DNA of 64,000 nucleotides from a bacterium (GCA_021799485.1 JAJZAK010000007.1:13472-77471); one strand, 5' to 3'. Shown: positions 1 to 53,770, counted from the first letter of the stretch. Program-made: numbers and translations. The notes: generated by a model from the sequence alone, not told the origin.

Positions 1-426
1 GAAGGCGATCCGCCCGGGGGCCGAGATCGTCCGCGACATGGGAAGCATGGCGGCCGTTGCGGTGCGCAGGCCGATGAGTTGGCGCTGGCGGGCGTCGAGC
101 TGGAAGGAGGCCGCTTCGGGGACGGCGTTTTCCGGCGGGTCTGGCGGGTCCGTCTCGATTTTCCGGAGCGTCATATGGCAGATAGGGCATTCGCCGGGCC
201 GAGTCCGCACGATCTGGTGGTGCATGGGGCATTGATAGAAGGTCTTCTTGGCGGACTCTTGGGCCGGAGCGGCCCCGCCGCCGGCCGTCGCGGCCGCCTT
301 TTTCCCGCAGGCGGACGTCATGGCGCCGGCGGCAAGCGCAATCAAGACTGAAAAAATGGTGACACCATACCTATTAATCCCCAGATAAGATTGGACGAGA
401 TCAAGAAATGCGTATGGTGTCACCAT
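1..426 (-). CDS. RND-type efflux membrane-fusion (periplasmic adaptor) protein, heavy-metal CusB/CzcB-like class; N-terminal 142 codons, continues past window start
   Basis: Own translation of the minus strand from ATG 426-424 gives MVTPYAFLDLVQSYLGINRYGVTIFSVLIALAAGAMTSACGKK..KTFYQCPMHHQIVRTRPGECPICHMTLRKIE..QLDARQRQLIGLRT. It has a hydrophobic segment plus Cys (lipobox-like TSAC). It also has the YxCPMHxxI..PGxCPxCxM metal-binding motif known from CusB/CzcB-type adaptors. It lies 17 nt downstream of the TolC-like gene. It is not in the ORF track because it is open at the window edge. The exact start is uncertain (ATG 426, GTG 423 or an internal TTG). Confidence 0.7.
   Translation of the reverse strand, partial: MVTPYAFLDLVQSYLGINRYGVTIFSVLIALAAGAMTSACGKKAAATAGGGAAPAQESAKKTFYQCPMHHQIVRTRPGECPICHMTLRKIETDPPDPPENAVPEAASFQLDARQRQLIGLRTATAAMLPMSRTISAPGRIAF
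356..426. repeat. Perfect 15-bp inverted repeat (atggtgacaccatac / gtatggtgtcaccat) with a 41-nt AT-rich spacer; each arm is itself a 13-bp palindrome ATGGTG-N-CACCAT
   Basis: Read directly from the sequence. Positions 356-370 are the exact reverse complement of 412-426. The palindrome centres at 362 and 420 are 58 bp apart. The right arm contains the putative ATG of the adaptor gene. Confidence 0.9.
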
Positions 427-443
427 ATTTGCCGTATTTTGAG

Positions 444-1697
444 TCATGGTTTTTCTCCTTCTTTCAAATCGCCTCCGACCGCTTTTTCGAGCAATGCCCG
501 CTCTTCGCCTTCGCGGCGCAAGCGGTCGTCGTAGCCTAGCTCGACCTCGAGCAGCCTTTCGAAAGAATCCGAGAAGCGGGCGAAGCTTTCGCGCCCGGTC
601 TCGTAATTTTTGAGCGATATCTCGAAGGCCGAGCGGGCAAGAGGGAGAAGTTCGCGGCCGTAGGAAAGCGCGAGCCGCCGCTGGGTCTCGATATTGATCC
701 TGTGGGAACGCACATCCTTGAGAAGATCGTTGAGCGCGGCCTGATAGTCCGCCTGGGCTTCCTCCTGGTGCCGCCTGGCGGCATCGAGCTCGGCGTCCTG
801 TTTCCAGGCCCAGAGGGGAATGCTGAGATTCATCCCGGTGTAGAAAGGCGAGATTTTCCCCCCCGTCTCCTGGGCTTGATAATTAAACTCGAAATCCGGA
901 GCGTAGGCCAGCAGGCCCAAATGATGCCCGAGGTCGGCGTGATGGATCAGGTGGGCGCTCTGGAGGAAATTCGGGTTTTTCTCCCGGGCGAGGCTTTCCA
1001 ATTGTTCGACGGAAGGGGGCGCTTCGCTCGGATTGGGCGGCGGCAGGAGAAGATGCCTTGTCCCAGGCGGCCGCGACAGAAGGGCGTTCAAGGCGGCTTC
1101 TTCGACCGGAACGCCGCGCTCCTTTTCGTAGGCGTCGTTTTCGACCTCCTTGGCCTTAAGCTCCGACAAAAGGGGCTCGTCCGCCCTGGCCTTTCCCGAG
1201 GCCGCGAGCGCCTCGGCGGCCCGGGTGACGGCCATGAGAATCGAAGCCTCGCGCCGCAGGACTTGGGAGGATCTCTGGAGGTAGAGGAGTTGGTGATAAG
1301 CGAGCTTGACTTGAGTCAGGACATCGAGCTGGACGGCGAGATATTTTTGGTAGGCGATTCGGGCCTCGTGGTATTTCATGCCGGACTCGGCGGAGAGCTT
1401 GCCGGGAAACGGAATCTTCTGGCTCACGGAGTACATCGTCATTCCGGTATAACCCGCCGGGCTCGGGATGCGCTCATAACCGTAGCCCAGCGTCGGGTCC
1501 TGCCAGGTCCAGGCTGGCAGGACCCGGTCCTTTTGGACCTCCCAGGCTTTCTTGGCGGCGAGGACCGCGGGGTTGCGGGCCTTGGCTTCCTCAAGAAGCG
1601 CGGCGAGGCTTTGGGGCCCTGCGGACGCGGACGAAACGGCGACCTGGGGCCAAGCCGCGCCGCTAGCAGCCAGCAGAAGGGTTATTAAAATATTCAT
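444..1697 (-). CDS. Outer membrane efflux protein (TolC/CzcC/CusC family OMF)
   Basis: 417-aa ORF with a signal peptide (MNILITLLLAASGAAWPQVAV). It has long helical, Leu/Ala/Glu-rich two-repeat composition typical of OEP-family proteins. It sits immediately upstream of the adaptor gene, as in czcCBA/cusCBA operons. Confidence 0.8.
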   Translation of the reverse strand: MNILITLLLAASGAAWPQVAVSSASAGPQSLAALLEEAKARNPAVLAAKKAWEVQKDRVLPAWTWQDPTLGYGYERIPSPAGYTGMTMYSVSQKIPFPGKLSAESGMKYHEARIAYQKYLAVQLDVLTQVKLAYHQLLYLQRSSQVLRREASILMAVTRAAEALAASGKARADEPLLSELKAKEVENDAYEKERGVPVEEAALNALLSRPPGTRHLLLPPPNPSEAPPSVEQLESLAREKNPNFLQSAHLIHHADLGHHLGLLAYAPDFEFNYQAQETGGKISPFYTGMNLSIPLWAWKQDAELDAARRHQEEAQADYQAALNDLLKDVRSHRINIETQRRLALSYGRELLPLARSAFEISLKNYETGRESFARFSDSFERLLEVELGYDDRLRREGEERALLEKAVGGDLKEGEKP

Positions 1698-1801
1698 GGT
1701 TCTTCATTTGAGTGCCTCTTGCGATGCTAAAGAATAGAGTCTTGGTTCTTTAGGATCGCCGCGCGACAACGCGCTTCGCGCGACTCCAATTAAGGAGGGA
1801 C

Positions 1802-2143
1802 TTAGGCGAGGCTGGGCGGCGAGAGGCCCGACGCGGCCCCGCGAAAGTCTTGGCGGGGTTGCGTCGGGACAGGGCAAGGAAAGTCGGCGGGAAACCGGAA
1901 GGCGCCGACTGAGCGGATCCCTGGCACGGCGGCGAAGGCTTGGTTGGAGGGTGATCCGGTCCCATGAAGGGCGGCGACAGGCCGGGGGGCGGCGAGGCAG
2001 CAGCTTTTAACCGGGGCCGAGGAGATCGGGCAGCAGGACTTGCAGCAGGAAGGCTTGATCTGGGGCCGAAAAGAGTTCGCGCCCGCGAAAGAAAGCGACA
2101 ACGCGAGCGCGAAGGGGACGGCGACGGGGCTGGGATGCTTCAC
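1802..2143 (-). CDS. Small secreted cysteine-rich protein, hypothetical (possible periplasmic metal binder)
   Basis: GTG-initiated 113-aa ORF with a convincing signal peptide (MKHPSPVAVPFALALSLSFAGANS). This is followed by three CC pairs within 20 residues (SCCKSCCPISSAPVKSCC). Third-codon positions in the first ~35 codons are GC-rich, like real genes here. It is co-oriented with and upstream of the metal-efflux genes. The C-terminal half is low complexity, so the ORF could be spurious. Confidence 0.35.
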   Translation of the reverse strand: MKHPSPVAVPFALALSLSFAGANSFRPQIKPSCCKSCCPISSAPVKSCCLAAPRPVAALHGTGSPSNQAFAAVPGIRSVGAFRFPADFPCPVPTQPRQDFRGAASGLSPPSLA

Positions 2144-2226
2144 GGCGCCTTTTTATACCCCCTTCCCTTCAAAATTTCAAGAGCCGCGTCTTTGCGGACA
2201 ATGCGGCCGGGGAGCGCTTGTGGGTT

Positions 2227-3087
2227 TTACGTCGGCAGCAGCTTGAGGGCGGCGCGGGCGACGGCGGGAACGAAGGCGGGGCGCAGGAGACGCTTGTCGT
2301 AGGGGGCGAGACGCTTTTCATTCTCCGAGAGGCAAAGTTCGACGAAGGCCCGCGGCGAGAAGTCGCCGAAGGACTTGTGGGCGTTCATCGTGAAATTATC
2401 CTGGGTGCCGGCGTTCTTTCCCACCTTGAGGGCGGTCTTCAAGCGGCTCACGGCCTGGAGCCACATCGCAAGGCCTCTGCGAAAGACGTAGCCTGGACGG
2501 CCGGCATAAGGGAGCTTCGCCTGATTGTAGGCGACCCAGTTGACGTGAAAGATGATATGCCGCCCCTCCTCCTGCATGATGGGCTCGAAAAGCGTCACGA
2601 GCTCCGGCGGGAAAAAACCGGAATCCCGAGCGAGCGCGAAGAGGCCGAAGGCGAAGAAGGAGTCGAAGCACTCCCCGTAGCCGATGCGCATGAAGGCCCA
2701 GTTGGGGTCTCGGGGCGCCGCGGGATTAAACGACGGCACGGGGATGCCGTATTTTTGGGTAAGAAGCTTCAAGATTCGGGCGTGGCGGGACTCCTCATAA
2801 CCCTGGAGCTTGATGGCATCGGAGAGGATCGGATCCTTTTCGGCCTCTCCCATCGTCGTCACCGCGAGCGCCGTCTCGGCCTCGGTCTTCACAGCCTCCT
2901 CCCAGATGGGGAGCGCCTTCAGCCGCTGCCGGGCATCGGAGCCGAGGTCCGGCCAGGAGAGCGTTTCGGGCTCATAAGGGTCGTGGGTCTCGACAAAGAA
3001 ACGGCAGAGGATCTCCTTATGTTTCGTGGAGCCGATGAAGCTGTCGGGGGCGCCGCCGGGCGCCTGGGGGTGCGTTGACGTTTTCAT
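2227..3087 (-). CDS. Ferritin-like di-iron carboxylate protein (oxygenase/desaturase-like)
   Basis: Two ExxH motifs are embedded in EESRH and EEGRH, each preceded by a helix with a conserved Glu (WEEAVKTEAE; GYGECFDSFF). This is the E / ExxH / E / ExxH ligand pattern of di-iron four-helix-bundle enzymes. The start was moved to ATG 3087 (MKTSTHPQ) because the 14 upstream codons of the track ORF are AT-rich and contain a promoter-like element. Confidence 0.7.
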   Translation of the reverse strand: MKTSTHPQAPGGAPDSFIGSTKHKEILCRFFVETHDPYEPETLSWPDLGSDARQRLKALPIWEEAVKTEAETALAVTTMGEAEKDPILSDAIKLQGYEESRHARILKLLTQKYGIPVPSFNPAAPRDPNWAFMRIGYGECFDSFFAFGLFALARDSGFFPPELVTLFEPIMQEEGRHIIFHVNWVAYNQAKLPYAGRPGYVFRRGLAMWLQAVSRLKTALKVGKNAGTQDNFTMNAHKSFGDFSPRAFVELCLSENEKRLAPYDKRLLRPAFVPAVARAALKLLPT

Positions 3088-3097
3088 AGGACGCGAC

Positions 3098-3125
3098 AAT
3101 ATAGTAAATTCAATGATAATGTCAA
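3098..3125 (-). promoter_or_regulatory. Sigma70-like promoter for the di-iron gene: TTGACA-N16-TATATT, only 10 nt from the ATG (near-leaderless)
   Basis: The minus strand reads ggTTGACAttatcattgaatttacTATATTgtcgcgtcctATG. The -35 box is at 3125-3120, the -10 box at 3103-3098 and the ATG at 3087. No SD is present. The call is from consensus matching only. Confidence 0.45.
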
Positions 3126-4102
3126 CCATGAATATGAACGGCGATTTTCACGGGAAAGGGCTCTGGGCCGTGATCCTGGGGGGTTCCTCGGGTTTTGGCC
3201 TTGCGACCGCCAAGCGCCTGGCTCGTGCGGGGCTCCATATCATGGTGGCCCACAAGGATAAGGAAGGCGTGGTCGAGACCCAGATCAAGCCCCATTTCGA
3301 GGCCATCCGGCAGACGGGCGTCAAGTTCGTCGCCCACAACGTGAATCTCTTCGACGACGATGACCGGGCCGGAGTCATGGAGTCCATTGAGGAGCAGGCC
3401 GGCCGCGGCAAGGTCCATCTCTTCCTCCACTCGATCGCGGCGGGGGCCTGCAAGCTCCTCGCGGAGCCCAAGGGGCCCGATTTCCGCGCGGACGCGATCA
3501 AAGGGCTTCAGGAAGCGCTGACTTTCGGAGGCGCCGCCGTGACCATTACGCAGCTCCGCGACGCCGTCAACAAGGCTTTCCATGAGAAGCGTTGCGACGC
3601 GCTCTACACCGTCGCCGACAGCAAGATCCCTTACAAAGACGATTTGCTCGAGGAAGAAGACGTCAGCCGCACGGTTTGGATGATGGGTTATGACTATCTC
3701 CTCTGGGGCCGGGAGCTTCTGGCGCGGGAGCTGCTGTCTCCCGAAGCCCGGCTCGTGGCCCTCACCTCCGAGGGCAACGAGATCGCATGGCGGGGCTATG
3801 CGGCCGTCTCCGCCGCCAAGTGCGCGCTCGAGGCCTCCTGTCGGGCGATGGCCCTTGAAATGGGGCCCTATGGGGTGAGGTCCTACATTGTCCAGGCGGG
3901 CATCACCGACACTCCCGCCGGCAACGCGATTCCGCATTTCGACCTCATGATGGCCCAAGCGCGGATGCGCAACCCCTTTCATCGGCTCACGACCCCGGAG
4001 GACGTGGCCGAGGCGATCTACGCCCTCTGCCTGCCGCCGCTCTCCTGGTCCAGCGGCTCCATCATCCGCGTCGACGGCGGCGAGGCGATCTCCGGACTCT
4101 AA
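3113..4102 (+). CDS. Enoyl-ACP/CoA reductase, FabV/TER-like SDR (short form)
   Basis: The glycine motif ILGGSSGFGLATAKRLA resembles FabV GASSGYGLA. HLFLHSIAAG resembles FabV LVVYSLASP. TVWMMGYDYLLWGRELL..IAWRGYAAVSAAKCALE resembles FabV TVTVMGGQDWELWINAL..YWDGALGKAK, with the Tyr/Lys pair retained. The protein ends with SGSIIRVDGGEAI. The start is ambiguous among ATGs at 3113, 3119, 3128 and 3134. I chose 3113 because it sits ~7 nt after a TATAGT box. Confidence 0.65.
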   Translation: MIMSTMNMNGDFHGKGLWAVILGGSSGFGLATAKRLARAGLHIMVAHKDKEGVVETQIKPHFEAIRQTGVKFVAHNVNLFDDDDRAGVMESIEEQAGRGKVHLFLHSIAAGACKLLAEPKGPDFRADAIKGLQEALTFGGAAVTITQLRDAVNKAFHEKRCDALYTVADSKIPYKDDLLEEEDVSRTVWMMGYDYLLWGRELLARELLSPEARLVALTSEGNEIAWRGYAAVSAAKCALEASCRAMALEMGPYGVRSYIVQAGITDTPAGNAIPHFDLMMAQARMRNPFHRLTTPEDVAEAIYALCLPPLSWSSGSIIRVDGGEAISGL

Positions 4103-4109
4103 ACCATTC

Positions 4110-5111
4110 ATGCTATCCATCCTCGGGATGGGCTGGCAGCTCCCCAAAAACGAGATATCGAACGATTTCCTCCACAAGGAAGTCGGGCTTGAACGCGGCA
4201 ATGACTGGGTGGACTCCAGGCTCGGCATCTATACGCGCTACTCGGTGCTTTCGAGGGAATACATCATCAAGACGAAGAACGCGAACCCCGTCCACGCCAT
4301 GATCCACGCGCGCTCCAACGGAGAGACTCCCGTCATCTTGGGCGTCCGGGCCGCCCGGCAAGCCTTGGACGAGGCGGGTGTCAAGCCCGAGAAGATCGGC
4401 TGGGTGATCGCGAACAACGACACTCCCTTCGAGACGATCCCCAGCACCGCGAGCTTGATCGCCAAGGCTCTGGGCGTCGGCTCCGGGCCTCATTGCGACA
4501 TGAACGCCGCCTGCTCGAGCTTCGCCCGCCACATGAAGGCGGTCGCGGACATCAAGGAGGAAAAGCTGCCGGAATTCGTTCTCTGCGTCCAGACGAGTTG
4601 CTACACGGTCCGCACCGACTATTCCCCCTCCTCGATCGACGGCTATATCTGGGGCGACGGCGCCTCGGCCGAGATCTTGTCCGCTCGGCATGAAGGCCCC
4701 CTCGCCATCGAGCCCATGATCTACGAAAGCGACCCTTCGGGGGCGGAGCAAATCATGATCGACTCGACGGGGCATTTCGTCCAGGACGGGGCGGCGGTGC
4801 GCGAGTTCTCTATCCGAAAGACCTGCGAGATGTTCGAGGAAATGGCCCAGAAGAAGGGACTCTACGCCGAGGACGTCTACACCGTGGCGCACCAGGCGAA
4901 CTTCGTGATGCAGAACTCCATCATCGGCCATCTGGGCCTGCCCGCTGAAAGGCATTTGCGCAACGTTCAGAGGCAGGGCAATATCGCCGCCGCCGGGGCG
5001 CCGTCCGTCATCGCCCAGAACAAAGGCCGATTTCACAAGGGCGACAAAATTCTCTACGCCGTTCTGGGTTCGGGGCTCGCCTGGGGCGGCGGCTGCATGG
5101 AGGCTCTCTGA
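4110..5111 (+). CDS. 3-oxoacyl-ACP synthase III (FabH-like KAS III)
   Basis: The Cys-His-Asn triad is in the expected contexts: MNAACSSFARH, VAHQANFVM and RQGNIAAAGAP. Length is 333 aa. Confidence 0.85.
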   Translation: MLSILGMGWQLPKNEISNDFLHKEVGLERGNDWVDSRLGIYTRYSVLSREYIIKTKNANPVHAMIHARSNGETPVILGVRAARQALDEAGVKPEKIGWVIANNDTPFETIPSTASLIAKALGVGSGPHCDMNAACSSFARHMKAVADIKEEKLPEFVLCVQTSCYTVRTDYSPSSIDGYIWGDGASAEILSARHEGPLAIEPMIYESDPSGAEQIMIDSTGHFVQDGAAVREFSIRKTCEMFEEMAQKKGLYAEDVYTVAHQANFVMQNSIIGHLGLPAERHLRNVQRQGNIAAAGAPSVIAQNKGRFHKGDKILYAVLGSGLAWGGGCMEAL

Positions 5112-5839
5112 TGGCGAAAGACGTCGCTGTCGTGACAGGCGCCTCGGGCGGCATCGGGAAGGCGATCGCCCGGATGATCCACGAGAAATCCAACGGCGAA
5201 CTTCAGATCTGTCTGCATTGCCGCGGCAACAAGTCCTCCGCCGAAGAACTTCAAAGGGAAATCCCGGGCTCCTTTGTCGTCCAGGCGGATCTCGCGACGA
5301 CGGAGGGCCGCCGCATGCTTTTGGAGGCGGCGGCTGGAAAGGGCCATCCTTTCGTTCTGGTCAACAATGCCGGCGTGGACAAGCCGCATGAGCCCGCGCT
5401 CATGATCCAGGAATCATCCTTCGACGAGATCCTGGGCGCCAACCTGAAGAGCGCCGCGTTTTTAATGCGGGATTTCGGCAAGGAGATGGCCGGCGCGGGA
5501 GCGGGCGTCATCGTCAACATGAGCTCGGTTTTGGCCGGCAAGGCCCTGATCGGGTCGGCCCTCTACCGGGCGAGCAAGGCGGCGATCGAGGCCTTGACGA
5601 AGCAGTTCGCCTTCGAGCTCGGCCCCAAGGGGGTGCGCGTCAACGCCGTGGCGCCGGGCTTCATTGAGACGCCCATGACGCGGGGAATCCCGCCGGAGAT
5701 GCGCGATAAGATTCGCTCGGAGACGGCCCTCGGCGCCTTCGGCGCCCCGGAGGCCGTCGCCCAGGCCGTCTGTCATTTGATTGAGAACGACTATATCAAC
5801 GGCGCCGTGCTGCCCGTCAACGGAGGCATGTCCCTGTAA
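5111..5839 (+). CDS. 3-oxoacyl-ACP reductase (FabG-like SDR)
   Basis: It has VVTGASGGIGKAIA (TGxxxGIG), NNAG, the YRASKAA (YxxxK) motif and a C-terminal NGAVLPVNGG. Its start overlaps the KAS III stop (TGATG at 5109-5113). Confidence 0.85.
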   Translation: MAKDVAVVTGASGGIGKAIARMIHEKSNGELQICLHCRGNKSSAEELQREIPGSFVVQADLATTEGRRMLLEAAAGKGHPFVLVNNAGVDKPHEPALMIQESSFDEILGANLKSAAFLMRDFGKEMAGAGAGVIVNMSSVLAGKALIGSALYRASKAAIEALTKQFAFELGPKGVRVNAVAPGFIETPMTRGIPPEMRDKIRSETALGAFGAPEAVAQAVCHLIENDYINGAVLPVNGGMSL

Positions 5840-6321
5840 TGGCCCTGACAGCGTCCGAAATCCTCAAGCTCGTTCCCCAGCAGCGCCCCATGCGCTTCAT
5901 CGACGCGATCGAGGAGGTCGATGACGAGCACATCACGGCGACCTACACGTGGAAAGACGAGGACTGCGCGGGGCACTTCCCGGGAAATCCCGTGGTCCCC
6001 GGCGTCAAATTGATCGAGATGGCGGCCCAGGTGGGCAACGTCGCCTGGGGCATCTACCATCTTTCCCTTGATCGTCCCGTCGAAGTTCTCTCCGGGCTTT
6101 TGGGCGTTTTCGCCGGGGTCGAGGAAGGAAGCTTCAAGCGCGTGGTGCGCCCTGGAGAGAAGGTCAGGGCCACGGCCTATTTCAACGACGAAGGATATTT
6201 TCGCAACAACAAAATCATGGCGTTGGTCGAGATCGCCTTCGCCGGCGGCGCCAAGGACGGAGAGATCGTTTTTACTGGAAAAACTTCGGGAATGTGGGTC
6301 CCTAAAGAGGAAGTGGAATGA
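5839..6321 (+). CDS. 3-hydroxyacyl-ACP dehydratase (FabZ/FabA-like hotdog fold)
   Basis: It has LVPQQRPMRFIDAI and the catalytic-His motif GHFPGNPVVPGVKLIEMAAQ. Length is 160 aa. The junction with the preceding gene is a TAATG overlap. Confidence 0.8.
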   Translation: MALTASEILKLVPQQRPMRFIDAIEEVDDEHITATYTWKDEDCAGHFPGNPVVPGVKLIEMAAQVGNVAWGIYHLSLDRPVEVLSGLLGVFAGVEEGSFKRVVRPGEKVRATAYFNDEGYFRNNKIMALVEIAFAGGAKDGEIVFTGKTSGMWVPKEEVE

Positions 6322-7637
6322 ATCGAAAAAGAGTCGTCGTCACCGGCCTGGGCGTGGTCGCCCCCAACGGCGTTGGCCTCGCCGCATTCCGGGAAGCCCT
6401 GAAAGCGGGCAAATCCGGCATCACGCAGCATGAAGAGTTGAAGCGCCTCAATTTCGCGGCGCAGATCGGCGGGACGCCGCCCGTCGGAGAGGAGGAGGCT
6501 CTTGCCGTTATCCCGGAAAGCGAGATCCATAAGCTCTCCGAGGCCATGATCTACGCGGTCATGGCATCCCTTGAGTGCGCGAAGTCCGCGGGACTTCCGG
6601 TTGACGTGGCGGCCGGCCTCAAGGACGGCGCCGTCGACTGGAACGCCGGGGCGGTGATCGGCTGCGGGATCGGCGGCATGGACACGATCTTCGAGCAGAT
6701 GGTCGCGGTCATTCGGGAGGCTCCGACGGCGGACGCGGGGCGCGGAATGGTGGACATGGGGACGAACATCGTTCCGCAGGTGATGGGATCGAGCGTCAGC
6801 GTCGCGGTGGGCCGCTTTCTGGGCGTGGGCGGACAGACCTCGACCAACAGTTCCGCATGCAACACCGGGACCGAGGCGATTTTCGAGGGCTATAAGCACC
6901 TGCAGTTGGGCTACGCGGACGCGATGTATGTCGGCGGAGCCGAAGGAAGCCACTACGCCATCTGGGCTGGGTTTGACGCCATGCGCGACGTGCTCTGCTC
7001 GCGCTACAACGACGCCCCCGAGAAAGGCTCCCAACCCTTGGGGGCCGGCGCCTGCGGCTTCGTTCCCAGCTCGGGGGCCGGAGTGCTGCGGATTGAGACA
7101 CTGGAATCCGCCCAAAAGCGCGGCGCCAAGATTCTCTGCGAGCTGGTCGCCGCCTATTGCAACTCGGGCGGCCAGCGCAACGGCGGGACGATGACCTTCC
7201 CCAATCAGGAGGGCGTCGTGCGCTGCATCCAGCGGGTTCTCCAAGACTCGGGGATCGATCCGGCGCGCATCTCCCTCATCAACGGCCACCTGACTTCGAC
7301 CACCGCCGACCCTCGGGAAGTCGAGAGCTGGCTGAAGGCCCTGGGGCTTGAGCCCGCGCATTTCCCGCTCATCCAGGCGACGAAGTCCATGATCGGACAT
7401 TCGCTCGGCGCCGCAGGGGCGATCGAGTCCATCGCCGTCGTCGACCAGATCGTCAACGGCTACGTCCATCCTTCGATCAACTGCGACGAGGTCCATCCCA
7501 ACATCCAGAAGCTGGGCGTGGCGAATTCGATCCCGCACCGGCTCCTTGAGCGCCGGCTTGATTATGTGATCAAGGCCTCCTTCGGCTTCGGCGATGTGAA
7601 CGGTTGCCTCTTGTTTAAGCGATGGGATGGTAGGTAA
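6318..7637 (+). CDS. Beta-ketoacyl-ACP synthase (KAS I/II, FabF/FabB-like)
   Basis: It has RVVVTGLGVVAPNG, the active-site Cys in NSSACNTGTEAI, and two His residues in INGHLTSTTADP and KSMIGHSLGAAGAIE. It has an ATGA overlap with the dehydratase gene. Confidence 0.85.
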   Translation: MNRKRVVVTGLGVVAPNGVGLAAFREALKAGKSGITQHEELKRLNFAAQIGGTPPVGEEEALAVIPESEIHKLSEAMIYAVMASLECAKSAGLPVDVAAGLKDGAVDWNAGAVIGCGIGGMDTIFEQMVAVIREAPTADAGRGMVDMGTNIVPQVMGSSVSVAVGRFLGVGGQTSTNSSACNTGTEAIFEGYKHLQLGYADAMYVGGAEGSHYAIWAGFDAMRDVLCSRYNDAPEKGSQPLGAGACGFVPSSGAGVLRIETLESAQKRGAKILCELVAAYCNSGGQRNGGTMTFPNQEGVVRCIQRVLQDSGIDPARISLINGHLTSTTADPREVESWLKALGLEPAHFPLIQATKSMIGHSLGAAGAIESIAVVDQIVNGYVHPSINCDEVHPNIQKLGVANSIPHRLLERRLDYVIKASFGFGDVNGCLLFKRWDGR

Positions 7638-7727
7638 AATATAAACTCTCGGCCTTCAGTTTTCGAAAGGCGAATGAAGATTTGTGAAGATGAACGCTGA
7701 TAAGAATTCTTAAGGAGGTTTCCCAAG

Positions 7728-8630
7728 ATGGCATTTAAGCGTCGCGAGGCTCCAACGGTCGAGGCAGTCGACCTGAACACGATTTCCCCCAAGGATGCGG
7801 AAACTCGCATCATCCAAGGGGTCAAGAAGTACGCCACTAACGAGGCCAACTGGTCCAAAGCCGACGCGAACACGCCTTTTTTGGGCTCGATCATCGGCAT
7901 GGGGATCGAATCGAGCAACCTCGCGGATGTGACGATGTCGATCGAGCGCCAGTTCCTCACCCGCAAGACGAACCGCGTTCCGGTCAACGGCGGCTCCGAG
8001 TTCAGGCTTGAGGATGGGGAGCTGGGGAAGCTGCGCATCCTCGACGGGCAGGACGCCACCGCCGCGACGCCGGGACTCTCGGTCAAGATGCTCATGGATT
8101 TAGGCCACATGCCCAAGGATGCCGGCTACCTGGCGGGCGTCGTGTCCTACGCCTATATCGTCGCGGTCGGCGACGGCTACCGCATGAACGACGGCCTCAA
8201 GAAGGCCATGGAGAAAGTGGGGCGCCTCTCAGGGGGCGAACGCGATGAGGCCCTCGCCAATCTCCGGGCCCTCGTCGTCAAGGCGCGCGAATACGTGGCC
8301 TTGCTGGGAGACGTTAAGGCCCTGGCCGAGAACCGCAGGAAGACATACGATAACGACAGGCAGACGGTCGACAATCTGCGCCAAGAGCTGTCCATGATCG
8401 GCGAAAAGCTCAAGGGGGCGACGGCGTCCGGGGATTCCGGCCAAGTCGCGGCGTTGCGCTCCGAGGAAACGAGCGTCCGCTCCCGCCTCAAGATGGGCGA
8501 GCAGCGCTATAAAATCTCGGAGCAAGTGGTCGCCGAGTCGGCCAGCCGCAAGGACGTCGAGGAAGCCAAGGTGCGCGAGATCTCGGCTCTCCTCTCGCGG
8601 ACGATCGCAGACGCCCAGCGCGTCGCCTAG
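7728..8630 (+). CDS. Hypothetical protein: putative atypical acyl-carrier-like N-terminal domain plus a ~170-aa coiled-coil/amphipathic C-terminal domain
   Basis: It has the only strong SD in the cluster (AAGGAGG at 7712-7718, 9 nt before the ATG) and follows a 90-nt AT-rich gap. Residues 59-76 (GIESSNLADVTMSIERQF) align with E. coli AcpP GADSLDTVELVMALEEEF, placing Ser62 on the phosphopantetheine Ser36. A helix-I-like AETRIIQGVKKYA lies ~35 residues upstream. The C-terminal region is rich in heptad-like charged repeats. The carrier assignment is inference. Confidence 0.6.
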   Translation: MAFKRREAPTVEAVDLNTISPKDAETRIIQGVKKYATNEANWSKADANTPFLGSIIGMGIESSNLADVTMSIERQFLTRKTNRVPVNGGSEFRLEDGELGKLRILDGQDATAATPGLSVKMLMDLGHMPKDAGYLAGVVSYAYIVAVGDGYRMNDGLKKAMEKVGRLSGGERDEALANLRALVVKAREYVALLGDVKALAENRRKTYDNDRQTVDNLRQELSMIGEKLKGATASGDSGQVAALRSEETSVRSRLKMGEQRYKISEQVVAESASRKDVEEAKVREISALLSRTIADAQRVA

Positions 8631-8646
8631 GCCGCGTAGCCTGTAA

Positions 8647-10044
8647 GTGCTCAGCGACGTCGATGTCCGGTCGCTCCGGTTGCAGGAAAGTCTGAGCGCC
8701 TGGGCCCGCTGGCCGATCTACCTATTTCTCTTCGTCTCGTTGCGATTCTATCACCGTTACCGCTTTGATGGCATCGAGGAGTTTCGGCGGTCCCTCTGGC
8801 AGAAACTCGACAAGCACCATGGCCCTATTATCTGGGCCGCTAACCATCTGACTCTCATCGACTCCTTTCTGATCTTCTGGGCCCTGGTTCCTCCGGGCCG
8901 AATATCCCGCACCAAGATCATCCCTTGGTCCACTCCCGAATATCGCAACTATTATCATCTGGGAGGCCCTATCTATAAGCGATTCATCCGGTTCCTGATG
9001 TACGCGTGCCGCTGCATCCCCTTCCTGCGCGGGGGCGACGACGAGGTTTCGGTTCAATGGCGCGAGAACGTCTACCAGAAATGCCGCTGGATACTGCTTA
9101 ACGGGGGCTCGGTTTTCATCTTCCCGGAAGCCGGCCGCTCGAAAAACGGCTGGTTCGACCCTCACCGCCCCAAGGATCTGCTGGGAAGGCTCGCTCAGGA
9201 GGTGCCCGGCGTCAAGTTTTTGTGCGTCTATCTCAGGGGCGAGGGGCAGATCCTGCGTTCCATTTACCCGCGCCAGGGCGAGCGATTCCGCATGGTCGGC
9301 GATCTCATCGACGGGATCGTCCCCGGCGAGACGAGTCCGCGCATGACGAGCCAAAGGCTTTTCAACCGCCTGGCCGAGCTTCAAAACGATTGGTTTGCCG
9401 GAAGCGGGCTCGCGAAGAACTGCGCGGGCAACGACGTCATCGATCTTGCCTCCCCCCACGCCAGGGACATTTTCCCGCCGGACGGCGACCCGGAGACGAT
9501 CGAGGAGGTCTTCTCGCGGCGGTTGACGGCAAAGGAAACGGCCTACCTCTCTGAATTTTCGGGGGAGGAGCGCTACCGGACTTTCTGGAAATTCATCGCC
9601 GCCAAGGAGGCCGCCATGAAAGCGCTCGCGCAAAGCGGCGTCATGTGCAATTTCAAGGATCTCGAAGCCGACCTGTTCCGTCGGCGCATCGTCCATCTTC
9701 CCACCGCCTGCGAAATGGATATCGCCCTGACGGTGGACGACCCCGAGAAAGTCCATGCGATCTGCGTCCTGCGCGGGGGTTACGTGGGCGACGACCAGCA
9801 CCCCGGGGATGTGCTTTGGGAAGTCCAGCAAGTCCCCGACGGCATTTCCCCCTCCGAGTTCGCCCGAGAGCGCTGCCTGGCCTTCATCGCGGCTTCCTCC
9901 GACGATATCCGCACGCCGGACGTCCTCGCGATGACCGACGACGGCGGCATTCCCAAGGTCCTTCGCAATGGACGCGTCTGCGATTGGGGCGTCTCCCTCT
10001 CGCATTCAGGGCGTTTCGCCGCGTATAGCTTCATGGTGTCATGA
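8647..10044 (+). CDS. Fusion protein: PlsC/LPLAT-type acyltransferase (N-terminal) plus 4'-phosphopantetheinyl transferase (C-terminal)
   Basis: The N-terminal half has acyltransferase motif I NHLTLID (H67-x4-D72) and motif III FIFPEAGRS (158-165). The C-terminal half has PPTase motifs GNDVIDL (261-267), FWKFIAAKEAAMKAL (WxxKEAxxK) and GVSLSHSGRFAAYSF. It starts with GTG and ends in an ATGA overlap with the next gene. Confidence 0.75.
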   Translation: MLSDVDVRSLRLQESLSAWARWPIYLFLFVSLRFYHRYRFDGIEEFRRSLWQKLDKHHGPIIWAANHLTLIDSFLIFWALVPPGRISRTKIIPWSTPEYRNYYHLGGPIYKRFIRFLMYACRCIPFLRGGDDEVSVQWRENVYQKCRWILLNGGSVFIFPEAGRSKNGWFDPHRPKDLLGRLAQEVPGVKFLCVYLRGEGQILRSIYPRQGERFRMVGDLIDGIVPGETSPRMTSQRLFNRLAELQNDWFAGSGLAKNCAGNDVIDLASPHARDIFPPDGDPETIEEVFSRRLTAKETAYLSEFSGEERYRTFWKFIAAKEAAMKALAQSGVMCNFKDLEADLFRRRIVHLPTACEMDIALTVDDPEKVHAICVLRGGYVGDDQHPGDVLWEVQQVPDGISPSEFARERCLAFIAASSDDIRTPDVLAMTDDGGIPKVLRNGRVCDWGVSLSHSGRFAAYSFMVS

Positions 10045-11006
10045 GCAAGCCCATGGGCGTCTGCGTCCTTTTCGCCGGCCAGTCGGTTCAGGAAAGCGGC
10101 ATGTGCCGCGAGCTCTGGGCATATCCCGCCGCGCGCGATATTTTAAAACGCCTGGCGCCGTCTCTCGGGGAGGACCTCGAACGGATCACGACCGAGATGC
10201 CTGATCCGGAGCTGGCGCTCACCTTCAACGCCCAGCGGGCGATTCACGCCCATCACCTGGGGCACTGGTTCGCCTTGAGGGCCGCCCATCCCGAGATCGT
10301 CCTCGAGGGAGCGCTGGGACACTCGATGGGGATCGTCGCGGCTCTCGTCGCCGCCGGGGCGATGTCCGTGGAGGATTCGGGGATCTTCATCCGCGCGCGA
10401 GCCCAGGCTTTTTCCGACGTTTGCAAGGGCTTTTCGGAGCCGATGGGCCTTGCCGCGATCTCGGCTGAGTTCTTCGAGGATGTCTCCGCGAGGCTTTCGG
10501 AGTTTCCGGGAGTGTCCATGGCCCTTCATAACACGATCGGCCGCGGTGTCGCCGGCGGGACTTTGCGCGCGATCGAAGATTTCGCCAGGAGGGCCCAGGA
10601 AGATGGATGGGAGGCGAAAATCAAGCTCCTGAAGGTCGAGGGCCCCTACCACACATCGGCCTTCGCCCCGGCTCGCGCCCCTCTGCGCAAGGCCCTGGAC
10701 CGAATCGAAATTCGAAAGCCTCAAGTCCCCGTGTTCATGGGAACATCCGGGAAGCTTGAAGAGGACCCCGGGCGCATTCGCGAGCTTCTCGTTGCTCAGG
10801 CGGATTCTCCGGAGCTCTACTTCCAGGCCGTCTGGGAGGCCTATGATCACGGCATGAGACGCTTTCTGGAGGCCGCCTACAAGCCCCAGCCAGTGACCTG
10901 GATGGGGGAGCAGCTTCTTGATGAGGATGGAAAGCTGATGCCCGGGGTCGTGCCGATCGCCATCAAGACATCGGATCTCGGAGCGGCGCTCTCCGTCGGG
11001 GCGTAA
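10041..11006 (+). CDS. ACP S-malonyltransferase (FabD-like)
   Basis: It has VLFAGQSVQ (FAGQGSQ-like), the nucleophile elbow GHSMGIVAAL, a conserved Arg in FIRARAQAF, and KVEGPYHTSAF (the xVSxxFH-like His). Confidence 0.8.
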   Translation: MSKPMGVCVLFAGQSVQESGMCRELWAYPAARDILKRLAPSLGEDLERITTEMPDPELALTFNAQRAIHAHHLGHWFALRAAHPEIVLEGALGHSMGIVAALVAAGAMSVEDSGIFIRARAQAFSDVCKGFSEPMGLAAISAEFFEDVSARLSEFPGVSMALHNTIGRGVAGGTLRAIEDFARRAQEDGWEAKIKLLKVEGPYHTSAFAPARAPLRKALDRIEIRKPQVPVFMGTSGKLEEDPGRIRELLVAQADSPELYFQAVWEAYDHGMRRFLEAAYKPQPVTWMGEQLLDEDGKLMPGVVPIAIKTSDLGAALSVGA

Positions 11007-11007
11007 T

Positions 11008-11634
11008 TCAGGGCAAGACGGACGTTCTCTCGGCGCACTTGTTGCAGCGTCCGCACGGGCGGCCCCGCACGGGGGCTAAGCAGGAGAACGCGAGTCCCAG
11101 CCACGAGGGCATCGGGAATCGACGAAGAATCTCCCTCTTGGAAAGAGTTCGATAAGGCGCCAAGACCTTGAAGGGCATGCCGAATGCCGATGCGATGGCG
11201 TGCTCCATGGATCTCAAGAACGCCGGTCGGGCGTCCGGAAAGGGGTTTCCTTTTAGGATGCCGATGGCGGCCGCGGGGATGCTCCGCGCGGCGCAATAAA
11301 GTCCTGCTTGCGCCAAAAGAACAAGGTTGCGTCCCGGCAGGAAGACGCTGGAAGCCGCGCTGCGCCGTCCGGGGACCGCCTTGCCAGAGAGGCTCCAGTG
11401 CCTCTTTCCTAAAAATCCGGAAACGGCCGCCCGGGATACCTCAAGCGGGCGCAAGCGCGGATGGGCGGCGGCTTTCAACATCCGGCGCAAGCGGCGCAGT
11501 TCGGCCGCCTCCCAACGGAGCCCGCAGCGCACATAGAGCGGATGAACCGCAAAGCCCAGTCGAAGGAAATCCGCCGTCAAAACGGCGCTGTCGACGCCGC
11601 CGCTGGCTAGAACGCAAACCGTTCGGACTTTAAT
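11008..11634 (-). CDS. queC: QueC-like PP-loop ATPase (7-cyano-7-deazaguanine synthase family), probable non-canonical ATT start
   Basis: The track ORF (TTG at 11580) lacks the P-loop. The same frame continues upstream as IKVRTVCVLASGGVDSAVL, which carries the SGGxDS motif, with no ATG/GTG/TTG before it. Other family features are FLPGRNLVLL, NPFPDARPAF and the C-terminal Zn cluster C..CGRCNKCAER. The ATT at 11634-11632 overlaps the TAA of the upstream gene (cATTAAa). Confidence 0.6.
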   Translation of the reverse strand: MKVRTVCVLASGGVDSAVLTADFLRLGFAVHPLYVRCGLRWEAAELRRLRRMLKAAAHPRLRPLEVSRAAVSGFLGKRHWSLSGKAVPGRRSAASSVFLPGRNLVLLAQAGLYCAARSIPAAAIGILKGNPFPDARPAFLRSMEHAIASAFGMPFKVLAPYRTLSKREILRRFPMPSWLGLAFSCLAPVRGRPCGRCNKCAERTSVLP

Positions 11635-12553
11635 GTGTGTGCCGGGAAACGAGCTTCCTGAGGCGCTCGACCAAGGCCTTATGGGCCAAATTTTCCTCGG
11701 GAATTTCCTCGGCCCCCGCTTCCGCTTGGGAAGGACCCGGGGCCGCTGGCTTGGGGGAGCGCGGCGGCTCGGGAGCGGGCTTGGCCGCGGCCTCCTCCTG
11801 CTGTCTCGATGAATCTTTCGGGAATCGAGAGGCGGCTCCCATCTGCGGCAAATCCTCCTCGAGCTTGCGGATGATGCCCAGGGATTTCGCGAGTTGGAGC
11901 TCCTTTTCCGTAAGCTCCAGGCTCAGCTTGTTGACGAGGCGATTGCGAATCGCGAGATCGTTTTGGGCGTCGCCGAGGCGCTTATGGAGGCTCTCCTGCT
12001 CGGCCCGCAGTTTCTCAAAGGCGACGCGCAGGGCCGCCGTCTGTTGTCCTTCCCTGGCGGCAGAGGCCTCCAAGGCCTGCGCGCGATCCTTTTCCTGAGA
12101 CAGGCTCTTCTCGAGATCCGCTATGCGGCCTTTCTCGGACTTTAAATGGGCGTCCTTTTCGATGAGACGCGCGTCCGACTCCTCGACGCGGCTTTTGAGA
12201 TTCATGATCTCAAGCTCGAGGCGGCGCAGGAGCTCCTGCTCTTCTCGCCTGTTTTCCAGCTCCTTGACGATGCGGGAGACGTGCTGAAAAAGCTTGGTGC
12301 CCGTGGCATCGATGAAGGCATTGACGTCGGTGGAGGCGGAGGATGCCGGCTTGGCGGAATTTTGCTCGTGGTCCGTGGCTCCCGCGGCCTTCAGGATCTC
12401 CGGAATTTCCGATGCCCGCCGCCAGTTCTTTTCGGCGATCTCCCCCTCGGCCGGACAGACGAGGATCGAAAGAGCGAAATCGGGCAGCCGGACAAGATCC
12501 TCCGGGGAATAGCATCCGGGAACTTCTCCGCGCAGATAGGCCCAGTATTTCAT
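11630..12553 (-). CDS. GYF_2 (DUF4339)-like N-terminal domain plus long coiled-coil protein, hypothetical
   Basis: The N-terminus is MKYWAYLRGEVPGCYSPEDLVRLPDF..NWRRASEIPEI (W-Y..G...GP-like GYF_2 pattern). The central ~170 aa are heptad-rich (LELEIMNLKSRVEESDARLIEKDAHLK...). The tail is Pro/Ala-rich. The SD is AGGAG, 6 nt before the ATG. Confidence 0.6.
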   Translation of the reverse strand: MKYWAYLRGEVPGCYSPEDLVRLPDFALSILVCPAEGEIAEKNWRRASEIPEILKAAGATDHEQNSAKPASSASTDVNAFIDATGTKLFQHVSRIVKELENRREEQELLRRLELEIMNLKSRVEESDARLIEKDAHLKSEKGRIADLEKSLSQEKDRAQALEASAAREGQQTAALRVAFEKLRAEQESLHKRLGDAQNDLAIRNRLVNKLSLELTEKELQLAKSLGIIRKLEEDLPQMGAASRFPKDSSRQQEEAAAKPAPEPPRSPKPAAPGPSQAEAGAEEIPEENLAHKALVERLRKLVSRHTH

Positions 12554-12612
12554 GGTTGTCTCCTAGAAGATAATCAAGGATAGGAAGAGGCCGTTACAAA
12601 TTCAAGTCGCAA

Positions 12613-13965
12613 TTATTTGGCGCGCGGCGGCATGGCGAGGTTCTTGAGATAGACTTCAAGGGCCTTCGCATCGCAGCGCTTTGCGAGGCAGAAGCGGGCT
12701 CTCGCCTGGTTGTCCCAGAAAGCGGGATAATCCGAAAGGACGCGTTCATAATCCGCGCTGGCGAGCTTGCGCAGCCCCAGAATGCTCTCGGCGTAGCCGC
12801 GATAGAGATAGAGGGTTGAAAGCCATGCCTGATGCTCCCTTGGCCCCCAGCCGGGCTTGCGGGCCGCAACTTTCAGGGACTCTTCCTCGCTGATCGCCTG
12901 GCGCAGCCAGCCCAGAGAGAGTTCCGTCTGATCGCGGTCGGGGCAGGATTTCGGGGCGAAGGCGCAAAGAAGAGTCAGAAGCTTCGGCTGCGACGTCTTT
13001 TCGTCCCGGGAGAAAGGAGCGAAAAACTCGCGGGCTTCATGGAAGGAGCCCGTAGAATCCTTCGTTTCGTAGAGCATCACGGATTCAAGGAACTGGAAAT
13101 AGGGGCTCTGGGGGTAGGAACGGCGAAGGACCCGGAGCATCTCGAGGGCTTTGGGAAAATCATGCTTATCCTCGATATAAATCGAGGCCAGGATGATTTG
13201 GGCCTGCTTCGAAACATAGACGGCGTGCTGGGCCGCGGTGTTGAGCAGATCGAGTCCCTTGGCCTCGTCTCCCTTGACGTCCAGAAGATGCCGGCTCAGA
13301 AAGCCCAGGAGGCCCGAGTAGCGCGAGACGTCGTATTCGAACCAGCCGAGGCCCAGCTTCGCGTCATCGTAGTCGGGATCGATATCGAGGCATTGGTGCA
13401 AATGGGCCACCGCCTTCTTGCCGGCGAAATAAGCCTTGAGCCAATGCCGTTCAAGGAGCTCCCACTGGCCGCGGGCGCCGAGAGCCATGCCGACGATAAA
13501 ATGGCCGTCGGTCTGCTCGCGAGGATCGTTGGATTCAAGAAGCGGCTTGGAGTGGGCGATGGCTTGACGGACGTCCTCCTCGAAGCGTTTGCGCAGGTCG
13601 GCGCGCCTTTTAAAAAGCCCCGCTTCGTTGGAGGCTTCCCACCAGAGGGCGCCCGCCTCGAAAAGATAGCTGAACGCCTTGTCGGGCTCGTTGCGGACGA
13701 GCATCTCAAAGGTCGCCCGGGACTGCGCGTAATCAAGGTCGTAGAGATCCTTGAAGCCTTGTTCGGAGAGTCCCAGGGCGACGGCGTCCATGCCGTAGGG
13801 GTTGGCGTTCGCATCAGGGCAAAAGAAGGCCGCGGAAGGACACAGAAAGACGCAGAAGGCCGCAAAACGCAGAAGGCCGCGGAAGGCCGCGAGGGGCCGG
13901 GAACGGCAAGAGATGCCTTTCCCAGCGGGGCCCCGTCGTTTTCCCTTGTCACTTCCAAAGCGCAT
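12613..13965 (-). CDS. Secreted all-helical TPR-like repeat protein, hypothetical
   Basis: It has a hydrophobic signal-like segment (LLRFAAFCVFLCPSAAFFCPDANA) followed by repetitive helical, Tyr/Leu/Ala-rich sequence. The start was set at the internal ATG 13965 (MRFGSDKGK) to limit overlap with the LOG gene, and is uncertain. Confidence 0.55.
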   Translation of the reverse strand: MRFGSDKGKRRGPAGKGISCRSRPLAAFRGLLRFAAFCVFLCPSAAFFCPDANANPYGMDAVALGLSEQGFKDLYDLDYAQSRATFEMLVRNEPDKAFSYLFEAGALWWEASNEAGLFKRRADLRKRFEEDVRQAIAHSKPLLESNDPREQTDGHFIVGMALGARGQWELLERHWLKAYFAGKKAVAHLHQCLDIDPDYDDAKLGLGWFEYDVSRYSGLLGFLSRHLLDVKGDEAKGLDLLNTAAQHAVYVSKQAQIILASIYIEDKHDFPKALEMLRVLRRSYPQSPYFQFLESVMLYETKDSTGSFHEAREFFAPFSRDEKTSQPKLLTLLCAFAPKSCPDRDQTELSLGWLRQAISEEESLKVAARKPGWGPREHQAWLSTLYLYRGYAESILGLRKLASADYERVLSDYPAFWDNQARARFCLAKRCDAKALEVYLKNLAMPPRAK

Positions 13966-53260: not shown

Positions 53261-53770
53261 CTAGCGTTTAATGAGAAAGAGATCCTGTCCCGATTTGACG
53301 GGCTTTCCGTTCTCGACGAGCGCCCGGAGGACCGTGCAGTCAAAGTCGGCCTTGATCTCGTTGAAAACCTTCATGGCCTCGATCATGCAGATGACCTGGC
53401 CCGAGGCGACGCGCTCCCCGTCCTTGGCGTAAGGCGGTGCCGACGGCGTGCTCGCGCGATAAAAGATGCCCATCATGGGCGCCTTGATCGTTTCGGAGCC
53501 GGCGGGCGCAGCCTGGGCGGCGGCGCGTTGAGCGGCGGCCGCGGGAGCGCTCGCGGCCGCCGCTCCCGCGGCGGGTCCCACGAAAACCGGAACGGGGACG
53601 GGGGCCTGCTCGGAGGGTTTTCTGACAAGGCGCACGTGGAGGTCGTCATCATCGAGCTCCAAGCGTTCGAGGCCATGGGAGCGCATGAACTCATAGAACT
53701 CCTTGAGCCTCTCCAAGGCGCGTGTCCCCCTCGGTTGCTGGGAGGGTTTCGACGGCGCTTTGCGGGCCAT
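53261..53770 (-). CDS. accB: Acetyl-CoA carboxylase biotin carboxyl carrier protein
   Basis: It has an Ala/Pro-rich linker and the biotinyl domain APMMGIFYRA..GQVICMIEAMKVFNEIKAD, which contains the EAMK biotinylation motif. Confidence 0.9.
   Translation of the reverse strand: MARKAPSKPSQQPRGTRALERLKEFYEFMRSHGLERLELDDDDLHVRLVRKPSEQAPVPVPVFVGPAAGAAAASAPAAAAQRAAAQAAPAGSETIKAPMMGIFYRASTPSAPPYAKDGERVASGQVICMIEAMKVFNEIKADFDCTVLRALVENGKPVKSGQDLFLIKR

Follow-up and report, generated by a model that had tools for sequence, protein, structure and literature searches.

The canonical type II fatty acid synthesis (FAS) system, as known from Escherichia coli and Bacillus subtilis, is built from discrete enzymes. 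Its genes follow the order fabH-fabD-fabG-acpP-fabF, with fabZ, fabI, acpS, and plsC located elsewhere. Bacterial type II FAS normally passes the acyl chain, bound to acyl carrier protein (ACP), straight to acyltransferases without the help of a thioesterase. ACP itself is among the most conserved and most connected of bacterial proteins, and little variation is usually expected in its size, its acidity, or its DSL motif. The locus described here lies in a 64,000-nucleotide (nt) stretch of bacterial DNA (GCA_021799485.1 JAJZAK010000007.1:13472-77471), called the window below, with coordinates counted from its first letter. Eight plus-strand genes at positions 3128 to 11006 probably constitute a divergent, complete type II FAS operon of a clade of Elusimicrobiota, one in which a 300-amino-acid (aa) protein, designated X300, acts as the carrier.

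How does this operon compare with the canonical system? The two have the same discrete enzymes and the same catalytic residues, namely, the C-H-N triad of the priming ketosynthase (KAS III), the C-H-H triad of the elongating ketosynthase (KAS I/II, or KAS II for short), the Y-x3-K of the 3-ketoacyl reductase (KR), the His/Glu pair of the hotdog-fold 3-hydroxyacyl dehydratase (DH), the Y-x6-K of the enoyl reductase (ER), and the GHSxG of the malonyl-CoA:carrier transacylase (MAT). Both also appear to deliver acyl chains to acyltransferases without a thioesterase. The gene order differs, however, and an initial annotation, made by a model from the sequence alone, was right that it is unlike plsX-fabH-fabD-fabG-acpP-fabF. 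In addition, the ER, a phosphopantetheinyl transferase (PPTase), and a PlsC-like enzyme are all encoded in the one operon, where the PPTase, an AcpS-type domain, is fused to the acyltransferase. Compared to a canonical ACP, X300 is 300 aa long, near-neutral, carries GIES in place of (G/A)DS(L/I), and includes a beta-hairpin and a helical bundle.

The mycobacterial FAS-II operon, fabD-acpM-kasA-kasB-accD6, offers another comparison. Its carrier, AcpM, is 115 aa long and has a flexible tail, and its DSL motif is of the canonical kind recognized by Pfam. The mycobacterial system only elongates and relies on FAS-I. The Elusimicrobiota operon is like it in grouping a MAT, an apparently over-long ACP, and an elongating KAS, with a carboxylase gene beside them (compare the acetyl-CoA carboxylase of locus L080, described below). 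In contrast to AcpM, X300 has a structured bundle of 160 residues and goes unrecognized by Pfam, and in contrast to mycobacterial FAS-II, the operon has a KAS III, KR, DH, and ER.

Two further kinds of systems bear a looser likeness than the canonical fab cluster or the mycobacterial operon. Aryl-polyene (APE) clusters resemble the operon in having a private carrier, a ketosynthase, a KR, hotdog dehydratases, and acyltransferases of the lysophospholipid acyltransferase (LPLAT) family, all without the canonical fab order. They encode a ketosynthase/chain length factor (KS/CLF) pair, an adenylating enzyme, a thioesterase, and export genes and are without an ER, KAS III, or MAT. None of these APE genes is present in the operon or its flanks, and the operon does have an ER, KAS III, and MAT; a reading as an APE cluster was therefore rejected on gene content. 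The other systems are Pfa-type. Some of these “secondary lipid” synthases have FabA-like double dehydratase domains, an acyltransferase domain of the 1-acylglycerol-3-phosphate acyltransferase (AGPAT) type, and a dedicated PPTase (Shulse & Allen 2011, PMC3098273). Similarly, 11 versions of the Elusimicrobiota operon contain a gene for a FabA-like double-hotdog protein. Pfa-type synthases are type I megasynthases with tandem canonical ACP domains, whereas the operon encodes discrete proteins and one atypical carrier.

The best structural match to the N-terminal domain (N-domain) of X300 is mitochondrial ACP (NDUFAB1/SDAP), which in complex I is also a structural subunit bound to helical partner proteins. 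Unlike X300, mitochondrial ACP is about 88 aa long, has a canonical phosphopantetheine (PP)-binding sequence, and is not fused to helical partners. In the literature searched, neither this Elusimicrobiota cluster nor a 300-aa ACP bearing a helical bundle is described, and the same goes for a FAS operon in which AcpS is fused to PlsC. Together in a conserved FAS operon, a 300-aa ACP-like protein and an AcpS-PlsC fusion would widen the known design space of carrier proteins. A carrier role for X300 would also explain automated calls of “FAS without ACP” in these genomes. On the practical side, the operon would offer a defined eight-gene set for reconstitution, and a model built from the X300 family would improve the annotation of Elusimicrobiota metagenome-assembled genomes (MAGs).

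The initial annotation listed nine genes, these eight plus a divergent, minus-strand gene encoding a di-iron protein, and open reading frame (ORF) listing and translation place all nine at or near 2227 to 11006, where it had put them (Table 1). The four junctions it cited, TGATG, TAATG, ATGA, and ATGA, read exactly so in the sequence. Its idea of one co-transcribed, self-contained unit holds up for the plus-strand genes, which include genes for chain priming, for malonyl loading, for every step of the elongation cycle, for activation of the carrier, and for acyl transfer; the di-iron gene belongs outside the unit, as discussed below. The longest ORF for the ER gene begins with a GTG at 3026, while public MAG annotations begin at 3128.

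Table 1. Genes of the operon and features associated with it (window positions, unless a locus is named)
Feature	Position	Strand	Remarks
ER, enoyl reductase-like short-chain dehydrogenase/reductase (SDR)	3128..4102	+	324 aa; PF13561, PF12241
KAS III (FabH-like), priming ketosynthase	4110..5111	+	PF08541, PF08545
KR, FabG-like SDR	5111..5839	+	TIGR01830; start overlaps KAS III stop
DH, FabZ/FabA-like single hotdog	5839..6321	+	PF07977; start overlaps KR stop
KAS I/II (“KAS II”), elongating ketosynthase	6318..7637	+	Matches fabF model; ATGA overlap with DH gene
Leader of carrier gene	7638..7727	+	39% G+C; AAGGAGG 8 nt before ATG
X300, putative carrier	7728..8630	+	300 aa; no family; ACP-like N-domain and C-terminal bundle
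PlsC-like acyltransferase/AcpS-type PPTase fusion	8647..10044	+	PF01553 and PF01648
MAT, FabD-like	10041..11006	+	PF00698; ATGA overlap with fusion gene
Ferritin-like di-iron protein	2227..3087	-	Two ExxH motifs; divergent neighbor
Di-iron and PF03279 (LpxL/HtrB-like) gene pair	L077 6001-7751; L078 6001-7772; L082 4001-5785		

Is the co-location of these genes meaningful? The window sequence matches contigs of the MAGs GCA_027366265.1 and GCA_027401895.1 and a JGI metagenome contig. X300 has 251 homologues, nearly all of them in Elusimicrobia/Elusimicrobiota MAGs, with 56 to 66% identity and a length fixed at about 300 aa. In a neighborhood scan limited to one genome per species, X300 was found in 70 loci, whose genes were counted by tblastn. 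The operon is also carried by a complete genome, CP096137.1 (locus L058). The initial annotation would have been refuted by a gene set and order not conserved in any related genome; in fact, ER-KAS III-KR-DH-KAS II-X300 is colinear in 45 of the 52 loci that extend far enough upstream. In 61 of 64 loci, X300 is immediately followed by the fusion gene or a PPTase gene, and in 47 of 55 a MAT gene lies downstream on that strand. The median identity of the operon proteins to those of the window is 52 to 70%, and the flanks of the operon are unrelated and variable across the approximately 70 species. In the nearest relative, L007, the FAS genes are 89 to 96% identical, compared to 82 to 85% for the flanking genes. 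The same genes in the same order are found in dozens of species, so the co-location is not due to chance. Judged by these comparisons, the stretch from 3128 to 11006 is a real, selected, and functional-looking eight-gene unit, conserved in a group of Elusimicrobiota.

The enzymes themselves are recognizable by their catalytic residues. KAS III has an invariant Cys-His-Asn triad (C135/H261/N291; n = 46 orthologues), and KAS I/II has an invariant Cys-His-His triad (C181/H324/H361; n = 53). Likewise invariant are Y152/K156 (Y-x3-K) of the KR (n = 34), H46/E60 of the DH (n = 28), GGSSGFG and Y224-x6-K231 of the ER (n = 31), and GHS95MG and H204 of the MAT (n = 35). With these residues intact, the KR, DH, and ER are predicted to provide a complete reductive cycle. 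None of the operon proteins reaches the NCBIfam equivalog cutoffs of FabH, FabD, FabG, FabZ, FabF, or FabI. KAS III scores 159 bits against the KAS3 model (cutoff, 249), the KR 173 bits against TIGR01830 (cutoff, 298), the DH 62 bits against FabZ (cutoff, 113), KAS I/II 270 bits against fabF (cutoff, 494), and the MAT 99 bits against fabD (cutoff, 261); for the ER, the best model is FabL, at 97 bits (cutoff, 328). In Pfam, the ketosynthase domains of KAS III and KAS I/II are above their cutoffs, and the ER matches PF13561 at 119 bits and PF12241 at 41 bits against a cutoff of 22, the latter with only partial coverage. By these scores, the operon enzymes are divergent homologues and not callable orthologues of the housekeeping Fab enzymes. 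The initial annotation had described the ER as FabV/TER-like. Its above-cutoff match to PF12241 agrees with that label, but FabV/TER enzymes are about 400 aa long and have Y-x8-K active-site spacing, while the ER is 324 aa long with a Y-x6-K of the FabI/FabL type.

What about the ACP? When the ACPs of E. coli and B. subtilis were compared by phmmer with the ORFs from all six frames of the window, no match was obtained, so the earlier observation that the window has no ORF for an ACP of about 80 aa stands. The carrier itself is a different matter. The initial annotation treated the product of the sixth gene as a 300-aa unknown and the cluster as lacking a carrier, whereas matches to the ACP fold, a candidate attachment serine (Ser62), and adjacency to a PPTase gene together make X300, most probably, the operon's ACP.

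X300 is labeled “hypothetical protein” in public records, and its family is very narrow, with only 23 clusters at 50% identity in an exhaustive profile search of 1.84 billion representatives. In an alignment of 30 homologues, the first 150 residues are highly conserved, and the helical C-terminal part varies more. AlphaFold2 models the full-length protein with a predicted local distance difference test score (pLDDT) of 85 and a predicted template modeling score (pTM) of 0.81. In the model, the N-domain (approximately residues 15 to 135) has a helix at 21 to 35, a long loop, a second helix at 62 to 75 that starts at Ser62, a beta-hairpin at 76 to 101, and short helices at 115 to 135. Five long helices follow across 141 to 299, forming the bundle of about 160 residues. 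The hairpin, which lies in the loop connecting helix II to the following helix, is missing from the versions designated L073, P0247, and P0257. Foldseek searches of the Protein Data Bank (PDB) with full-length X300 returned only generic coiled-coil and alpha-toxin matches (E > 0.04). Because the helical bundle swamps the fold signal of the full-length protein, the N-domain was also modeled alone (pLDDT, 77). With this model, 17 of the 19 top matches were ACPs, with probabilities of up to 0.99, target-normalized TM scores of 0.54 to 0.76 (about 0.7), and root mean square deviations of about 3 to 6 Å. The best were the mitochondrial ACPs 8beh_T, 8ud1_1U, 8zo8_AC, and 7v2c_G. Others included E. 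coli AcpP (9mlw_C), a Thermus thermophilus ACP (1x3o), AcpM (9mvz_G), the ACPs of Helicobacter pylori, Plasmodium, and Brucella, and an ACP of a polyketide synthase (PKS). The N-domain most likely adopts, according to the model, a four-helix ACP-like fold interrupted by the beta-hairpin.

Where would the phosphopantetheine be attached? The residues G57-M-G-I-E-S62 are invariant in 56 X300 orthologues, making Ser62 the candidate site. The invariant motif, GMGIES62(S/A)NLADITMSIERQF, resembles helix II of ACP, (D)SLDTVELVMALEEEF, and both hhalign and hmmsearch align Ser62 to Ser36 of AcpP. Ser62 also aligns to Ser44 of P0261, a 77-aa protein that matches the X300 profile with an E value of 2e-4 library-wide. 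P0261 is encoded by an ORF at L079 2106-2339, beside a scaffold gap on a 3.6-kb contig and outside any FAS cluster, and it may be either a real small ACP or a fragment. A very distant version of X300, P0257 (288 aa), keeps the serine in the form of GMDIPS, where it is the only motif residue retained; it lacks the hairpin and comes from a locus with the same gene order (L080, on a 40% G+C contig).

The genomic context also bears on the role of X300. In three loci (L062, L066, and L068), X300 is followed by a gene with a match to the PPTase half of the fusion only; a PPTase thus adjoins X300 even when unfused to an acyltransferase, which is counted in favor of a carrier role. Counted likewise are the gene order shared by the distant P0257 locus and the five loci, listed below, in which X300, the fusion gene, and MAT keep together without the other five genes nearby. 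Upstream of X300, a strong AGGAGG-type Shine-Dalgarno (SD) sequence is present in nearly all of 22 loci inspected, and in many of them a TAnAAT-like hexamer comes right after the KAS II stop codon (within the 100 nt upstream of X300). The spacer between KAS II and X300 is AT-rich, and these elements hint that the carrier gene has a promoter of its own within the operon and is strongly translated. A strong SD sequence and a -10-like element are in keeping with an abundant protein.

The fusion protein has a hydrophobic segment near its N terminus (residues 19 to 32), followed by a PlsC-like domain with NHxxxxD at 66 to 72 (H67-x4-D72) and FPEAGRS at 159 to 165. Its AcpS-type PPTase domain carries GND at 261 to 263, AAKEA..K at 318 to 327, and SLSHSG at 450 to 455. 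Across 51 orthologues, the distant one of L080 among them, both halves keep their motifs. A search of the PDB sequences with the fusion protein gave no significant match.

From these parts, a working scheme can be proposed. The AcpS-type domain of the fusion would place phosphopantetheine on Ser62 of X300, and the FabD-like enzyme would load malonate onto it. KAS III would prime, and the KR, DH, ER, and KAS I/II, whose catalytic residues are intact, would elongate the chain on X300 by the chemistry expected of their families. The PlsC-like domain, presumably membrane anchored, would then move the finished acyl chain from X300 to a glycerolipid-type acceptor, and off-loading of this kind would leave no need for a thioesterase. 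The initial annotation had singled out the missing thioesterase. No thioesterase domain was indeed found in the window, but this is usual for bacterial type II FAS and not a peculiarity of the operon. As for the helical bundle, it is speculative that it oligomerizes the carrier or docks it to partners or the membrane.

How secure is the assignment of X300 as a carrier? Several observations weigh against it. No Pfam or NCBIfam family matches X300 or the N-domain alone, even at an E value of 10. The Foldseek E values for the N-domain are weak (0.1 to 8), the model is least confident around Ser62 (pLDDT < 50 at residues 56 to 60), and hhalign assigns a probability of about 1% to the X300/ACP alignment. 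An HMMER profile of the N-domain found no ACP among the PDB sequences and made one spurious match, to AcoP. P0261 passes the Pfam PP-binding model (PF00550) by only 0.4 bits, at 21.2 bits against a cutoff of 20.8. Finally, canonical ACPs are strongly acidic, while the ACP-like domain of X300 is near-neutral, with a net charge of -1. X300 might then be a scaffold, a regulator, or a lipid-binding helical protein, with a canonical AcpP encoded elsewhere and the fused PPTase acting as the AcpS of the cell. That no sequence model calls X300 PP-binding would fit, as would the lack of acidity, and a helical bundle with weak fold matches to membrane-active or coiled-coil proteins makes up over half of the protein. 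Such a role is nevertheless improbable: the fold matches of the N-domain are consistently to ACPs; Ser62 is invariant, structurally well placed, and kept even in P0257; the PPTase and MAT genes steadily adjoin X300; and the N-domain is far more conserved than the bundle, as expected of a hub that must meet many enzymes. Could the pathway do without any carrier and run on CoA thioesters? Fatty acid synthesis without ACP has been proposed for archaea, and the window has no recognizable ACP of about 80 aa. This idea was rejected on gene content and deserves next to no credence, because a PPTase with intact motifs and a FabD-type transferase make sense only with a phosphopantetheinylated carrier and because both ketosynthases belong to types, FabH and FabF, that depend on ACP.

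With X300 taken as the carrier of a complete type II FAS operon, there is still the question of what the operon is for. The balance tips slightly toward the main membrane-lipid FAS of these organisms and not a second, specialized one. Four features of the operon support this leaning. (i) The operon is strongly conserved over approximately 70 species while its flanks vary. (ii) The only PPTase seen is joined, in one protein, to an off-loading domain of the phospholipid type. (iii) A gene for a FabA-like double-hotdog protein, suggestive of anaerobic synthesis of unsaturated fatty acids, lies inside the cluster in 11 loci. (iv) In L080, the gene next after the operon encodes a fused acetyl-CoA carboxylase with a length of at least 1833 aa. 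The initial annotation instead favored a dedicated pathway, parallel to ordinary FAS, that would hand a particular chain directly to a lipid acceptor, perhaps after modification by the di-iron enzyme. That the operon enzymes score well below the housekeeping Fab equivalog cutoffs counts for this view and against a housekeeping role. So do the ApeI/ApeP-like matches of the DH in a precomputed Pfam list, the private carrier, PPTase, and MAT typical of orthogonal systems, and the five loci that keep only X300, the fusion gene, and MAT. A specialized pathway is still the less likely option, since a complete parallel set that includes an ER, MAT, and PPTase, at 52 to 70% identity over approximately 70 species, would be unusual for a secondary pathway. 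The unsaturation gene and the adjoining carboxylase likewise speak against it, and the di-iron gene is not conserved with the cluster. It counts for the housekeeping view as well that, apart from the operon, no fab gene lies in the window or on its contig flanks and that neither a canonical fab gene nor, in any of the six frames, a canonical ACP ORF turned up there or in about 1.2 Mb of sequence from related loci, a sample biased to this neighborhood. Might X300 even be the only ACP of these Elusimicrobiota, having replaced the small acidic AcpP in the whole clade? This is a tentative idea, and the odds are somewhat against it. If it were so, X300 would need to be recognized by all of the co-evolved Fab enzymes and probably also by the acyltransferases for lipid A and phospholipids, and the helical bundle would organize the synthase as a tethered or membrane-proximal assembly.

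The operon is not the same everywhere. The double-hotdog gene, absent from the window, is on the operon strand between KAS III and KR in nine loci (L025, L023, L024, L036, L038, L048, L053, L069, and L070) and on the other strand in L010 and L073. Its product has two PF07977 domains (149 bits) and the motif CHFxGDPVMPG; an example is L025 6324-7442. In L009, at 2124 to 4137, the KAS III gene is tandemly duplicated, and a GNAT acetyltransferase gene lies between KR and DH. L030 carries a gene for an M23 peptidase at the corresponding position, and the operon thus tolerates unrelated insertions. In five loci (L015, L017, L019, L020, and L022), X300, the fusion gene, and MAT are kept together as an intact trio, with no ER, KAS III, KR, DH, or KAS II gene within 10 kb upstream. 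These loci come from MAGs labeled only “bacterium” or “Elusimicrobia,” a lineage in which the operon is split. A distant version, L080 2781-16867, lies on a metagenome contig and has the same eight-gene order (its X300, P0257, matches at E 1e-15). There, the operon is followed by the single long ORF mentioned above, in which a biotin carboxylase, a biotin carboxyl carrier protein (BCCP), and a carboxyltransferase are joined.

Does the di-iron gene take part in any of this? Its identity is reasonable, judging from E99xxH102 and E174xxH177, plus E64 and E140, which are invariant in 119 homologues. The family has at least 5774 matches, for which the NCBI label is “ferritin-like domain-containing protein.” The initial annotation's description of the product as ferritin-like thus finds some backing in the two ExxH motifs and the label, though the protein has no Pfam match and none among NCBIfam models or PDB sequences. 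Membership in the operon, on the other hand, was ruled out: in the 70-locus scan, the gene adjoins the operon only in the window and L007. The suggestion that the di-iron enzyme desaturates or hydroxylates the operon's product accordingly finds no support in conservation, and in three operon-bearing MAGs (those of L009, L023, and L046) the gene is on another contig. In these three MAGs, it is directly upstream of, or overlaps, a PF03279 (LpxL-like) gene, which is followed by clpB. The di-iron protein is also not a stand-in for an absent FabA-like gene, a role rejected since the L023 MAG has both. A part in modifying the acyl chains of lipid A is a better lead than tailoring of the operon product, and the family may represent an undescribed lipid A acyl-chain oxygenase. 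The literature searched contained nothing relevant on a link between ferritin-like proteins and LpxL, and the window has no LpxL-like homologue. Next to the operon, the di-iron gene would be an unrelated neighbor, placed there by rearrangement. In a Thermoanaerobaculia MAG (L081), the context of the family is different.

Only 40 bp (3088 to 3127) separate the divergent start codons of the di-iron and ER genes. A minus-strand match to a sigma-70 promoter lies at 3125 to 3098 (TTGACA-16-TATATT; 11 of 12 positions), and the plus-strand match is weaker; both candidates would yield nearly leaderless mRNAs. An Rfam scan of positions 1 to 13000 gave no match and hence no known riboswitch or leader.

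The remainder of the window is ordinary chromosome, with genes for a TRAP transporter, MTHFR, glycosyltransferases, MurJ, two-component systems, a MoxR/BatA operon, FtsK, PNPase, PriA, and TyrRS. Between the PNPase and FtsK genes, at 53261 to 53770 on the minus strand, is a lone gene for a 169-aa biotinyl/lipoyl (BCCP-like) protein, with no biotin carboxylase gene adjoining. Just beyond MAT, at 11008 to 11629 on the minus strand, is an intact gene for a QueC-like PP-loop protein that covers positions 3 to 204 of the 210 in the Pfam QueC profile and carries an SGGxDS motif. The gene lacks an ATG, GTG, or TTG start; translation could plausibly begin only at an ATT overlapping the TAA of the upstream gene for a 307-aa coiled-coil protein (ATTAA). 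The QueC-like gene goes uncalled in public MAG annotations, and it is found just downstream of MAT in 10 related loci.

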